A stretch of DNA of 64,000 nt from Eledone cirrhosa (lineage: Eukaryota), in contig OZ024748.1 of assembly GCA_964016885.1 (NCBI GenBank), positions 23,870,001 through 23,934,000 of the forward strand, written 5' to 3'. A program made the translations under genes and the position numbers. Positions 8,440 to 30,999 of this stretch are shown here, piece after piece; position 1 is the first letter of the stretch, and each line of letters begins with the position of its first letter. The notes beneath the pieces are model-generated. The model was given only the letters and a program-made list of their open reading frames with translations. It had not been told where the DNA came from and did no database searches.

Positions 8440-9062
8440 GTAATAATAATAAAATTGAAGACTAAAATCCAAAGAGGGCTCGATAAGGAAAATATATATC
8501 AGATATATAAGAACCGTAGAGCAAATATTTATTAAAATAACAGATTAAAGTTTAAGCAAAGAATCGCTGCTTTCACCCTTAACGGGATCTTCTGAAACTA
8601 ACAAAGTCAATCTGTAAACGCAGAACTGGATATTTCAAAAAACGTTGCAACCGGAGGAAGACAGGAAGACGATACTTTGGTTCGTGGTGACGTTCGCTGG
8701 CAAAGAACGGGAAAAAACGAATAATACGTCATTAATAGGAGCGGTGAAAAACAATTACGTGCAAGGACAGAACCACGTTTATGGTATAAAAGAGGTCGTA
8801 GACTAATGTTCTCTTAGGTGGTTGCGCGTAATTGTTTTTCACCGCTCCTATTAATGACGTATTATATTCGTTTTTTCCCGTTCTTTGCCAGCGAACGTTT
8901 CCACGAACCAAAGTATCGTCTTCCTGTCTTCCTCCGGTTGCAACGTTTTTTGAAATATCCAGTTCTGCGTTTACAGATTGACTTTGTTAGTTTCAGAAGA
9001 TCCCGTTAAGGGTGAAAGCAGCGATTCTTTGCTTAAACTTTAATCTGTTATTTTAATAAATA
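8440..9062. mobile_element. Fold-back PLE-type mini-insertion (family F) with 3' tail on the left
   Basis: Arms 8525-8764 and 8822-9062 are reverse complements. The unpaired 8440-8524 reads TGCTC..TCGAGCC on the minus strand. Both ends lie in (TA)n. Confidence 0.8.
8989..9039 (+). ncRNA. Type I hammerhead-like motif with variant core CAGAAGA
   Basis: agttt-CAGAAGA-t ccc gttaa ggg t-GAAA-gca gcgattctt tgc-TT-aaact; mirror copy on the minus strand in the left arm; third copy at 13149-13199. Confidence 0.6.
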
Positions 9063-9128
9063 TACATATATATATATATATGGTGAAAAATTGAACGGAA
9101 ACAAAACAGAGAGGCAATATATATATAT

Positions 9129-9350
9129 AATTGAATATAAAAGAAAAACGAACACAGATATTTACATATATGTATTCAAATCATAAGGGACCAGATTCTG
9201 GTCCCTTACGATTTGAACACATATATGTATATATCTGTGTTTATCTTTCTTTTATATTCAATTATATTATACGGCTCGGAAAAATCTCTTTCCTAGAGCT
9301 ATTTTGTTGTAAGAGACTATTTTGAGTTTCTAACTCAATATATACCTTTG
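9129..9350 (+). mobile_element. Fold-back mini-insertion (hairpin 9129-9263) plus tail
   Basis: Palindrome centred near 9195 (gggaccag att ctggtccc), then tail GGCTC(9273)..GAGCT(9296), then (TA)n. Confidence 0.7.
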
Positions 9351-9564
9351 ATATATATATATATATATATATATATATATATATATATATATATATATAT
9401 ATATATATATATATATATATATATATATATATATATATATATATATATATATATATATATAGGAAAATGTTCAAGACCCCGGTGGCAGAGCTCAAGCCGT
9501 TTCGACGGCTACGACGGAGTTAAACACTTCAACAACATGTGTATCTGTCTCTACCACAATTCGG

Positions 9565-9619
9565 ACTGCCTGAAGAGGTCACAGCCAAGGATGGATGTCA
9601 CCGAAATATATATAGTAGT
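9565..9619 (+). ncRNA. Type I hammerhead ribozyme (family A pLTR)
   Basis: actgc-CTGAAGA(9570-9576)-ggtcacagcca..tgtcacc-GAAA(9603-9606)-tatata-TA-gtagt; followed by AATAAA. Confidence 0.8.
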
Positions 9620-9833
9620 ACACCTTTAATAAACGAAGCCAAATTTTAAATATTTGACTTAATTATTTTATTTATAATTATTTATAATTATTTTATTTAT
9701 AAAGAATGAGAAATTAGAAAGATTAAAGGGACGAGTAGGGTGGAATTGGAAAAATGTTTTTAGAGAAAAATAACAGGTCCATTCATGATGTCATCTCTTA
9801 TATATATATATATATATATATATATATATATAT

Positions 9834-27246: not shown

Positions 27247-27930
27247 CTAGCTGACCCGTCCGGCTGGCGGCCGGCTAGGTATACCGGCATTTTATTAGTT
27301 CAGGAATTCCCCCTCCACTCCATTGCAAAGATACCGCAAGCGATAGTGGGGTGGGTGGGGGTGTTAACGTGCTCTGATGTTGGGTTTGAATAGTTTTTAG
27401 GATTCCCCAGTTCAGCAGCCAGTACGTTAAAGAAAATTGATAGTTACAACAATAAAGGCTGAACAGAGAACACATTTTTTAACAAACTTTACAATAATTT
27501 GTAGAACCTTATAGAAATTCGAAGTAACAGAAAATACATAAATTACATTGTTAGAGCCTCAGAGTATACAATAGTTTTTGTTCGGCCCTCGGGAGCAAAG
27601 ATGAAGAGATTGTTTGGCGAGCTCACCCTAGAGCATCCTACATACAGTTGGCCATGGGAGAAGCATGGTTTTTCCAGATGAAGGCCAGCCACTTTTAGGG
27701 TTTGACCCTGGGCTTTGTTGATGGTAATCGTGAAGCTTAGTCTCTCTGTTGCTCTAGTAACATTTTTTCTTTTGGAAAATCTGATCTTGCGGCCAGGCTG
27801 GGACTTTTTGGGTGGCATATCGGCAGCAACAATAACGATAAGCCGTCTGTGCTTTCGTGAAATAAATACGTTTGTTTATATTTTGTTTTTGTGTATGCAA
27901 AAATATCTGTACAGGAATATATAATTATAC
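27247..27930 (-). mobile_element. Internally deleted Helitron with RepHel N-/C-terminal fusion ORF (27543-27818)
   Basis: ORF carries Pif1 helicase C-terminal motifs TINKAQGQT..FSHGQLYVGCSRV; 3' hairpin ccggc/gccgg + CTAG|T at 27247-27250. Confidence 0.85.
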
Positions 27931-28056
27931 ATATATATATATATATATATATATATATATATATATATATATATATATATATATATATATATATATATAT
28001 ATATATAAAATAAAGTTAAATAAAAGTCAAATGATTAAAATTTAGCTTCGTTTATT

Positions 28057-28111
28057 ACTGCTATATATATTTCAGTGACAGCCATCTTTGGCTATGACCT
28101 CTTCAGGCAGT
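28057..28111 (-). ncRNA. Type I hammerhead ribozyme in PLE 3' pLTR (family A)
   Basis: Minus strand: actgc-CTGAAGA-ggtcatagcca aaga tggctgtcact-GAAA-tatata-TA-gcagt-AATAAA. Confidence 0.85.
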
Positions 28112-29309
28112 TTGAATTAGTATGGTATAGACAAGTACATATATTGTTTAGGTGTATAATATTGTCAATACTCTGATATGCCCAGTTCCTTGTTGGGTTG
28201 TTAATTCACTGAGGAACTGGAGTCATATGAATTCAAACAAACGAATTTTAGTGTCAAAGGTCCCCTTCTCCTCTCATTGGTCAGTTATTAGAACATTCCT
28301 CATTCTAAGTGTTGTTATTGTTGGAGTTAGCTTAAAAATTGATAAAATAGTAGAAGGGACAAGGTGTTAAAGGAACAAAATAACAGAAAAAGTGTCAAAC
28401 TTCCCATTGGTCAGTTCTGAAAGCATTCCTCAGTCAGAAGTCTATAGAATTCTTTCTGGGGTGAGGCTCCCTGTAGTGTTTTTGCCTGCTATTGTTCAGT
28501 ACATTTGACCTCCACCATTATTTTGGTACTGTTGTTGGTGTAGTGGTCAGCTTATATCTTGCTGCTGCTAACAATTTAGAAGTATCCAGTTTGTGTTTTC
28601 TTTTCCCTTCATCCCTCCCCCCACCATCGTAGTGGTGTGGGGGGGGGGGGGTGTTCTTCCATGTATATGAAGAAATATAAGGCAATAAATGAAGAGAACA
28701 GAAAATAAATAAATAATATAATAAAATAATTAATATAATTTGTGTAATTTGAAAATAAATAAATAAATAGAGAATAAAGGATAAATGAGAGATTGGTGAA
28801 AAAGTAATGAAAATGAATATGGAGAAGTGAGAAATAATGTAGGATAAAGTGTGTGTGTGTGCTATAACCAATCTCAAGGTCAGAATATGTTGGATAGATT
28901 GGTATGAGACAAGATGTTAAGATGAGATATTCAAACTCAATGTGTTTGTGTTATAATCTATCTCAACTTAAAATAAATATAAGGTGATACAGTGAAGAGG
29001 GCAGAAAACAAATAACAAATTAATAAAGAGAAATCAAGATTTAAGATTGGAACTTGAAAGTCAGAAATCTGGTAAATTAAAAGTGTTTGTGTTATAGATG
29101 TTGGCCAAATTATTATGGCTGTGTCCGATTCTATCTCTATGCTATCATGGTGTCTGCTCCGCCTGGGTTGTTCCCTGTGGCTTGAGGGGAGTTCACAACC
29201 TAGGGTGTTTTTATTGCCCATATAGCTTGAGGGAGGTCTGGCCGAGAGGTGTTTTCATGTTCTGTAGAAGTCCCTATAGCTTGAGGGGAGTTCACATCTT
29301 CTTGTGTTG

Positions 29310-30874
29310 CTACTGTCCATATATCTTGAGAAAGGTCCCGGCTCTAAGGTGTCTGCATGTCCCGAAGAAGTCGGTTCTGAGGTTTATCAGGCCGCTTCCA
29401 CCTCTTAGTATCTCGAGGGTCTCGTTCAGGCATAGTTTGCATATGCAAGATCCCCCTTTATCGGGTGGTACTTTCCTGATTATGTACCAGGCCAGAGAGT
29501 ATGGGGTCCTGTCCAGCTTAAGCTTCCAGATCAGGTCGGAGAGAGCTGTGCTTTTCCTTTTGGCCTCCTTCTTGAATGAATGGCGATGGTTGTACCAGCG
29601 GTCCTTAAAGTTCCTTGATGTGGCTCCTATGTAGAGGTGTTCGGAGTTGGGGGGTTTTAACCCTACAACCGTACACTAGGTTCTTCTTGAGACATTCATT
29701 ACCAAGGGGGCATGATTCGGGGTTTCTGCAGTTGCAGAGGGTGGTCGGCCTCTGCATGCCTAGATTAGGGTTTTCATTATGTGTTACATGTTGGTCCTCC
29801 CCCATGCTCGGTGGGGGGTCCTTGGGTCTGTTTGTGTTTCTTGGGTGGGCTCTGGGTCCCCCCTTCCCTCCTTTCACATGGTTCTGCTGAGTGTTTGTAT
29901 TGCCATCTTCTGGTTGTGTGTGGTTTTTAAGCCTACTTCTGTTGATGCTAGCTATGTGTTGGGCCAAATTTCTCGTGGTGGAATACGAAAGCTTCACAGT
30001 GTGTCTGTTGAAGATCCTGTGGTATCTGTGGTCCCTCGGGAAGCATTTGTCAAGTGCTCCAAAGAATAATCGGGCCAAGCTTTTCTTTAGGGCCGCTGAG
30101 TAGGGTGGGTTGTACCACGTGATTTGTCGGTGTCTCCTCTTATATGTGTGGGTCGGGGGCTTCGTGATTTGTTGGAGATTTGTTGGGTTGCTGGTGTTTC
30201 CGCACTGTTGCTTCCCTTTTAGGCTCTATACTTTTTGTTATCTTCGCGGCCCGGATTTGTGGGGTGGTTGTTGTCCGCCCCGGGAGATCCATCGTGGGGT
30301 GGTCGCCCGTTCCCCCCCCCCACGTGTCCTGCGGTTGGGGTCGTCCGTCCTGGGGTAGTTAACGTCACGCCTGAGACTGCTACTCATATTGTGCTCCATC
30401 TCGTGGTCAAGCGCACTAGTCAACACCGCCCGTGTGGTGGTGTCTGGTACATGGTGCCTATTTGATTCTACTCTGCCTGTATTGTTAGGGTTCGCCCTCC
30501 CCCCTCTGGCAACGCGGTTGTGGGTGTCTGTTGGGCTATCCACCTCCCGGCTTTTCGGACTATATGTTATATTTTGTCCATGTGCCGCCTTCTTTAGAGC
30601 TGCGTTGTAATATTCCGCGTGGTTGTTGAATATTTCCTTACTTGCGGACAGGCTGGAGATCCTGTCCGAGACACTCTTCACCACTGCCTTGGTTATGGAT
30701 CTAGGGTGGTTTGATTTGGCGTTAACATATACGAGTTTCTCGTTTGGCTTGTGGTAGGGGTAGTATTGCTCGGTGTTCAGGTTTAGAGTGGTGTCTAGGA
30801 AGTTAACTACCTTCCTATTTGGGTCTATTTCTATGCTGAGCCCCTGGTTCTTAAAGAAATGGCGAATACGCCTT
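29310..30874 (-). pseudogene. Disrupted PLE RT-thumb/GIY-YIG ORF
   Basis: +1 frameshift in the G6 run at 29649-29654; two in-frame stops in the linker at ~30226-30240. Confidence 0.85.
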
Positions 30875-30999
30875 TATTTTACACTACTCCGGAGTAACCA
30901 AACCAACCTGCGCACTTCGTCGAGTGCTCCAGCCTGCATACTGAGGTGTTGGTATACAACCAACATAAACTCAAAATCTATATATATATATATATATAT

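Follow-up and report, generated by a model that had tools for sequence, protein, structure and literature searches.

A one-sided tail and inverted pseudo-long terminal repeats (pLTRs) are the signature of Penelope-like elements (PLEs). For the Hydra clade of PLEs, which carry a C-terminal endonuclease (EN+), Craig et al. 2021 (PMC8557442) ascribe both, with a tail of 30-40 bp, to endonuclease resolution, and for Poseidon PAc of Anolis, Frangieh et al. 2024 (PMC11167929) report two internal starts of reverse transcription in one element, without what sets them; these papers, and the others given by PMC or bioRxiv number, are cited here for the passages and supplementary parts consulted. In a 64-kb window of Eledone cirrhosa (contig OZ024748.1, positions 23,870,001 to 23,934,000, the whole stretch analysed), we found a bulged hairpin which opens the tails of short, mostly palindromic elements and of element O, the remnant of a Hydra-clade PLE. 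Related full-length elements carry the hairpin in two tandem copies, hereafter copy 1 and copy 2, and both insertion ends are hairpin-placed, the tail being hairpin 1 plus the spacer. As a guide for the start of the reverse transcriptase (RT), the hairpin would explain the long-noted and unexplained PLE tail. Furthermore, a duplicated hairpin of 20-30 nt that predicts both ends makes the origin of the tail directly testable, gives a rule for annotating the boundaries of Hydra elements and for spotting protein-free stubs, and supplies structural studies of telomerase's nearest RT relatives with a first candidate for an RNA partner.

Element O has in common with the Hydra clade the CxCX5C linker, the CxxC/CxH motifs and a hammerhead ribozyme in the pLTR, and the window elements share with it the (TA)n targets, the inverted 5'-truncated copy and the one-sided tail (PMC8557442). 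The hairpin itself is visible, unremarked, in three of the six Hydra consensuses of that paper and in a variant form in a fourth; no hairpin is described in its passages, section 11 and supplement parts consulted. The published tail length is not matched: counted from the start of the hairpin, tails measure 62-93 nt in the window and 51-69 nt in the relatives, the overall range of 51-93 nt corresponding to the spacing of the two hairpins. Poseidon PAc resembles the arrangement proposed here for Hydra in having two tail-bounding internal starts downstream of the hammerhead, and differs in that these lie within the open reading frame (ORF), where the paper speaks of an AC-rich stem-loop and, in the parts consulted, defines no conserved motif in two copies (PMC11167929). 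Non-LTR retrozymes (PMC7229834; bioRxiv 10.64898/2026.07.22.740005) are, like the window stubs, short non-coding hammerhead sequences from pLTRs, but they form head-to-tail tandem arrays, whereas the stubs of the window are truncated and joined head to head, and none has more than one hammerhead on either strand. An identity as non-LTR retrozymes was rejected, as no head-to-tail type I hammerhead arrays occur among the window elements.

The element architecture, the tail and the two internal starts are already known. Searches of Rfam and of the text of the accessible literature showed neither the motif nor its duplication nor the 2-6-nt rule set out below; for the hairpin, this literature includes passages of PMC8557442, PMC7229834, PMC6765202, PMC4209133, PMC13282606 and bioRxiv 10.64898/2026.07.22.740005. 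A first-pass annotation of the window, which had reported a covarying hairpin at the boundary of pLTR and tail, knew of no description of it, and within this scope that holds for the motif, the two tail-bounding internal starts having been published for Poseidon (PMC11167929). The duplicated RNA element is real, clade-wide and apparently undescribed, and from it both 3' ends of Hydra insertions can be predicted.

A bulged hairpin at the tails of the window elements

The window is animal DNA rich in microsatellites. Self-comparison with simple repeats masked reveals serial head-to-head palindromes sitting in (TA)n, most of them with an unpaired extension on one arm, which always lies downstream of the hammerhead, the RNA sense having been assigned from hammerhead cores or from hand-read 3' halves. 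An inverted 5'-truncated copy with an extension limited to one arm is the inverted-pLTR-and-tail arrangement of PLEs. The elements and their hairpins are the following.

8478..8522 (-): bulged hairpin of element B, copy-1 type, 35-nt inner part; palindrome 8525-9063, short arm ending 2 nt before; tail end near 8440
9274..9299 (+): bulged hairpin of element C; palindrome 9120-9271; 6 nt after the short end; tail to 9350
9464..9673: element D, an inverted J/K-family short end joined head to head to a 28008-family short end
9897..9916 (-): bulged hairpin of element F; palindrome 9922-10241; 4 nt after the short end; tail to ~9834
10020 (-) and 10143 (+): full hammerhead cores of element F
10928..10948 (+): bulged hairpin of element G, F family, without inverted arm; tail to ~11011
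11188 (-) and 11330 (+): hammerhead cores of element H
11435..11459 (+): bulged hairpin of element H; palindrome 11090-11428; 4 nt after the short end; tail to 11516
11868..12495 (+): element I, the exception: palindrome 11868-12335, extended by 160 nt, in which no clean hairpin is seen
12582..12605 (-): bulged hairpin of element J; palindrome 12611-12731; ~5 nt after the short end; tail to 12534
21160..21183 (+): bulged hairpin of element K, J family; 5 nt after the short end; tail to ~21237
21324..21342 (-): bulged hairpin of element L; palindrome 21349-21445; 5 nt after the short end; tail to 21281
21664..21684 (+): bulged hairpin of element M; palindrome 21470-21655; 6 nt after the short end; tail to ~21732
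21891..21910 (-): bulged hairpin of element N, F family; palindrome 21918-22102; 2 nt after the short end; tail to 21827
30886..30925 (+): bulged hairpin of element O, opening the inverted tail 30872-30978, which flanks the ORF remnant 5'; the short end, as fixed by 28008 and 31001, lies 4 nt before it

The hairpin consists of an outer stem RCTC/GAGY (ACTC/GAGT in 8 of the 11 sites), a variable inner stem and a 2-nt bulge T-(T/C/A) on the 3' side, followed mostly by RCT. The 11 sites represent 8 families, F, N and G being related, as are J and K. At all 10 sites with a short arm, this arm ends 2, 6, 4, 4, 5, 5, 5, 6, 2 and 4 nt before the R of RCTC, distances read by hand which TA microhomology blurs by a few nucleotides each, J having in addition three mismatches near the end. 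The palindromes 58-483, 9701-9798/10476-10574, 23314-23474 and 31141-31190 are without the bulged hairpin.

The full descriptor of this structure finds exactly 11 sites in the 64 kb, against a mean of 0.77 and a maximum of 3 in 60 dinucleotide shuffles. Since it had been composed after the sites had been seen, a covariance model was built from 18 hairpins of other hosts only; its top 8 window matches are all among the 11 sites, the best of them (35 bits) being the hairpin of element M, and 9 of the 11 are recovered within 13 matches at E<=10. The long-loop sites 8522 and 30886 escape the model, and four of its matches, at E 2-9.5, lie away from the elements. Rfam models gave no match at E<=1 in 8 full relative loci; in the window (1-47000), among the matches listed (150 of 218), all scored below the gathering threshold and were mostly microRNA (miRNA) models on repeats. 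An identity as miniature inverted-repeat transposable elements or miRNAs was rejected on account of the hammerheads, the one-sided tails and the sub-threshold Rfam scores.

The ten stems listed by the first-pass annotation are all in place, with ends given 2 nt too far because the CT following GAGYR had been included; the site at 21910 (-) had escaped it. Its signature YRCTC..GAGYR was by itself unspecific and had to give way to the fuller bulged structure: the plain 4-bp RCTC/GAGY stem with a loop of 6-60 nt has 38 matches outside the array at 47-60.5 kb, of which 11 are the bulged hairpin. Its statement that the short arm stops just before the hairpin was borne out, the end points lying at 2-6 nt.

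Several features of these elements are recorded here. Element D suggests two templates in one event, or neighbouring insertions. Element I has a long-stem hammerhead-like core, a short motif in common with the F family and, in its 160-nt extension, two TACTC starts. The palindromes of B (8525-9063) and M (21470-21655) carry in both arms hammerhead cores with an altered second or first base; that of B recurs in its copy near 13150, and such ribozymes may be inactive or variant. In the tails of C, F, N, H, K, L, M and O, a second hairpin, unrelated in sequence, folds near the long end of most.

Element O and the duplicated hairpin of Hydra-clade relatives

The link between the hairpin and a protein is provided by element O, which comprises, besides its hairpin:

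29310..30873 (-): ORF remnant, 5'-truncated and frameshifted, Hydra-clade Penelope-like, with RT thumb, CxCX5C linker and GIY-YIG endonuclease with CxxC and CxH
28008..28171 (-): pLTR belonging to the copy with the ORF, with a hammerhead core at 28106 (-), ending at the short site into (TA)n
31001-31169 (-) and 9513-9673 (+): further copies of the 28008 pLTR

Element O is assigned to the Hydra clade because its CxCX5C linker, its CxxC/CxH and its C-terminal GIY-YIG match the definition in PMC8557442. The RT thumb matches P0177 at 44%, and GIY-YIG is detected downstream of the RT at E=2e-4; the translations read CNCRNPESC in the linker, then CKLC and CRH, the flanking CxxC/CxH of the clade, with no CCHH, and these columns are invariant in the relatives. 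RWK and DKT are present in the alignment consensus of the relatives, the N-terminal part being truncated away in element O. A canonical predicted hammerhead core and (TA)n at both ends agree with the pLTRs and targets of Hydra. The tail that begins with the hairpin at 30886 is an inverted copy 5' of the ORF and overlaps the pLTR end by 10 nt. When four sequencing runs were compared with 28001-31190, opposite-strand joints 28016/30872 and 28006/30882 were found to link pLTR and tail in other copies; they are the same joint within the 10-nt overlap, seen in 2, 1 and 1 contigs of three runs and in 301 raw reads of the fourth. Over 28001-31190 the pLTR end has a greater read depth than the tail; this depth does not represent copy number and was left unused. 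With respect to the relatives, the ORF remnant has two insertions of roughly 50 and 110 codons (29760-29900 and 30220-30560) around the thumb and linker, and 31141-31190 is an inverted 28008-family arm ending at an AC-rich spot ~140 nt upstream of the usual short end.

The stubs B, C and F-N have no attached ORF within the window. They probably belong to the Hydra clade as well, because they share the hairpin, a same-strand whole or 3'-half hammerhead (none in G) and the TA targets. The families called otherwise unrelated by the first-pass annotation are indeed unalignable in their DNA, and most likely they are all Hydra-clade relatives, so that the motif would be inherited and not convergent.

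Relatives were obtained by a HMMER search (2824 proteins at E<=0.001, of which 66 near-full-length ones were aligned), a word-index protein search with the endonuclease fragment having given no match. They amount to 93 loci, 76 from metagenomes (the best 80 of 272 confirmed stretches) and 17 from genome contigs, forming 77 clusters at 80% DNA identity. Viral contigs gave one weak locus (L001, discarded) and then none, and a PDB sequence search with the Hydra profile gave 0 matches at E<=1. Loci L078-L094 are Hydra-clade animal retroelements whose contigs are deposited as bacterial genomes, the bins likely including DNA of the host.

In these loci the hairpin is located between the hammerhead and the start codon. 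In 15 kb of sense-strand untranslated region (UTR) windows from 46 loci, a sequence-only detector gives 68 exact and 88 near matches; it gives 0 exact matches in 165 kb of ORF sense and 165 kb of ORF antisense strand, and 9 exact matches elsewhere, most of them further element ends. Two copies are present under the strict descriptor in 20 of 23 complete hammerhead-to-ORF intervals, and the other three show both by the covariance model; when this model was run on 17 of the 93 loci, none from the training set, 44 of its 45 matches fell outside ORFs. The spacing is narrow: 74-107 nt from the hammerhead to copy 1, 55-73 nt from copy 1 to copy 2, and 34-52 nt from copy 2 to the ORF start in 19 of 20 loci, with one at 82.

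By eye, the hairpin is clear in the published consensuses Hydra-2_Amil (coral) and Hydra-2_Ajap (sea cucumber), clear and present twice in Hydra-1_Ajap, and of variant form in Hydra-1_Crog (copepod); it is missing from Hydra-1_Amil, which is truncated, and Hydra-1_Obim has at most a degenerate form of it (PMC8557442 supplement). Five 9-mers compared with the whole text of this supplement, a search that misses matches across line breaks, gave 4 matches in Hydra UTRs and 2 in Naiad/Chlamys without the stem.

The hairpin covaries. With one hairpin taken per cluster, inner pairs 1-3 of copy 1 are paired in 36/36, 33/36 and 28/31 cases, covariation as high being reached in 0 of 5000 shuffles, and those of copy 2 in 34/34, 16/31 and 14/17. 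On an RT tree of 29 families (median amino acid identity 48%), the inner pairs undergo 8, 17 and 12 changes of state, and pairing is retained in 29, 27 and 26 of the 29. In an alignment of 18 hairpins selected by loop length, a pair-count tool finds 96.8% paired and 26 double changes, against 20-63% in slid controls. The outer stem is nearly fixed, GCTC/GAGC in 70 of 80, with the compensatory forms GCAC/GTGC twice and TCTC/GAGA once. The covariation announced by the first-pass annotation is therefore real, most of it being in the inner stem; the G-C/A-T swap that it cited is a minor part. Outside the hairpin, the non-coding elements of the window align to none of the 93 loci, the sole match being the hairpin itself. 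The copy-1 hairpin of element H (11436-11458) and the copy-2 hairpin at L013:430-460 have 23 identical nucleotides including the loop, and nothing else aligns.

The ends of the insertions follow the two copies. In the relatives, ends were placed by laying the end of one copy of an element on a second copy within the same contig; 24 ends were counted from 43 rows, after dropping 7 mirror, 9 microsatellite-only, 1 5'-junction, 1 ORF-internal and 1 hairpin-less rows. Nineteen of the 24, from ~17 families, precede a hairpin by 2-6 nt (copy 1 in 11 cases, copy 2 in 8), when by simple arithmetic an even spread over an interval of roughly 200 nt would predict ~1. In 11 terminal copies the distance from copy 1 to (TA)n is 51-69 nt, matching the 55-73-nt spacing of the copies. 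Since the ends precede copy 2 and the tail lengths fit the copy spacing, the long end is set by a second hairpin which the insertions do not carry. The first-pass annotation had taken the hairpin as the mark of a second start only; it is duplicated in full-length relatives, where the long end lies 2-5 nt before the second copy, invisible in the window because it is never copied into insertions. TA or AT occurs within -8..-2 of 46/49 copy-1 and 33/35 copy-2 sites, in an AT-rich context and without a null comparison. L087 carries a tail at both ends, and the 5' junctions of the near-full-length elements L006, L011 and L038 lie, by eye, upstream of the ORF near copy 2.

A probable positioning of reverse transcription and its rivals

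Taken together, these data make it rather probable that the hairpin is the first of two tandem RT-positioning copies on the sense RNA of Hydra-clade elements. Each copy would bind the RT-endonuclease on the sense RNA and thereby bring the AU-rich unpaired stretch immediately 5' of the hairpin into the active site. From the nicked (TA)n, target-primed reverse transcription (TPRT) would start 2-6 nt upstream of either copy, a few bases pairing with the target; a start at copy 1 would yield the short end, a start at copy 2 the long end with its tail, and two such cDNAs joined head to head would give the short-arm/long-arm palindromes. Copy 2 lies beyond the long end and is absent from the cDNA, so that it would act on the template and not on the cDNA; by symmetry, copy 1 would do likewise. 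In Poseidon PAc, RT initiates internally at the two tail-bounding sites, both nicked target strands are extended, and RNA is needed to +172 for a distal start at +111-118, i.e. ~55 nt further 3' (PMC11167929). The internal starts of Poseidon and the position of copy 2 outside the cDNA thus favour a protein-binding, template-positioning hairpin that would act at the RNA level and direct initiation rather than cleavage. The conserved covarying cis-element of the first-pass annotation does fix the short-arm end, and the RT binding that it proposed is, on RNA, the best reading of the sequences.

Structured RNA that holds the RT and fixes the start of copying is found in the R2 3' UTR, telomerase RNA and hepadnaviral epsilon, in which bulged stems are common. 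The Hydra hairpin differs from them in being 3' of an internal start, duplicated and mostly uncopied, and the likeness implies no claim of homology. One may go further and imagine that the two hairpins load both subunits of a dimeric RT-endonuclease on one RNA, each priming one nicked strand, at the short and at the long site, so that a single reaction would yield the short-arm/long-arm palindrome; this we consider possible and rather doubtful. The pairing of a short with a long end in 10/13 to 11/14 window insertions (p about 0.03-0.05 against 0.5; hand-classified) lends it modest support, and the dimer predicted for PAc (PMC11167929) also speaks for it, whereas element D, which joins two families, counts against it. 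If true, it would provide the first defined template-positioning RNA element of the RTs that are the sister group of TERT (PMC8557442), and a portable signal of 25 nt for choosing the start of copying.

Several observations sit uneasily with a positioning role. Copy 2 covaries weakly at pairs 1 and 2 (276 and 125 of 5000 shuffles are as high) and has T.T at pair 2 in 10 of 31 hairpins; wobble counts fail to choose the strand (G.U versus A.C, 13 sense-type against 9). Three of the 19 hairpin-placed ends (3-5 nt) depend on the default, more lenient scoring, 16 being obtained under the strict one, and the five ends that miss lie 33-98 nt before a hairpin, two of them resembling subfamily divergence. 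Element I and the arm 31141-31190 end elsewhere than at a hairpin, and the full-length L087 has its 5' junction at copy 1 (L087:5885), which is simpler under cleavage. Element O alone among the window elements is physically tied to an ORF, and no copy 2 came to light in this host, where the read comparison skipped, as a repeat, the stretch that holds the long end. Lastly, the Poseidon evidence comes from another clade, and by eye the PAc template is without such a motif; a faint UCUC/GAGA stem 3' of its distal start, also seen by eye, was too weak and was left unused.

The junction of L087, together with those of L006, L011 and L038, would be accounted for, along with the 3' ends, if each hairpin directed a cut of the RNA 2-6 nt upstream, by an element protein, a host nuclease or self-cleavage, the new 3' ends then serving in end-primed TPRT; the invariant bulge and the 3' ACT indeed resemble a recognition site. 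We regard such a cut as unlikely, for the size of the Poseidon product is independent of the RNA 3' end, i.e. initiation is internal (PMC11167929), and a spread of 2-6 nt that tracks TA microhomology would suit priming better than a fixed cut. The hairpins could instead be stop signals on an antisense template or in fold-back DNA, synthesis halting just before the structure: antisense self-priming has been proposed for head-to-head repeats (PMC3846280), the palindromes are near-perfect (the arms of H are 99.7% identical) and the wobble pairs leave the strand undecided. A fold-back on cDNA cannot meet copy 2, since no cDNA contains it, element D unites short ends of two families, and initiation on a sense template occurs in vitro at both tail borders of Poseidon (PMC11167929), which makes this explanation improbable.

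Little credence can be given either to a service in translation or transcription (cap-independent entry after ribozyme cleavage, autoregulation or an internal promoter), the ends being set by some other factor nearby. A hammerhead-cut RNA would lack a cap, and the narrow distance from copy 2 to the start codon (34-52 nt, 19/20) fits such a service, which leaves unexplained the ends 2-6 nt before both copies in ~17 families; such a role might exist alongside positioning and not in its place. That the hairpin reflects shared ancestry or chance, without function, is very improbable and largely refuted: the families are probably homologous and short stems are common (38 simple stems), but the motif is kept while the surrounding pLTR DNA is unalignable, compensatory changes recur on the tree and the motif is absent from 330 kb of ORF strands.

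Other features of the window

The palindrome 58-483, with a hammerhead 3' half and both arms without tail, adjoins a SINE-like repeat. A different hammerhead-bearing family without the bulged hairpin is represented by 9701-9798 + 10476-10690, with a second copy at 6085-6223; its short arm stops ~4 nt before the hammerhead core, the unpaired part containing the ribozyme, and the TA tract at the centre of the 9701-9798/10476-10690 element hosts two other insertions. Next to the 28008 end lies a helicase-like fragment (27543-27875), presumably of the Helitron type; RT fragments of the LINE type, two in number and matching Pfam RVT_1, are located at 19344-20147 and 25828-26322.

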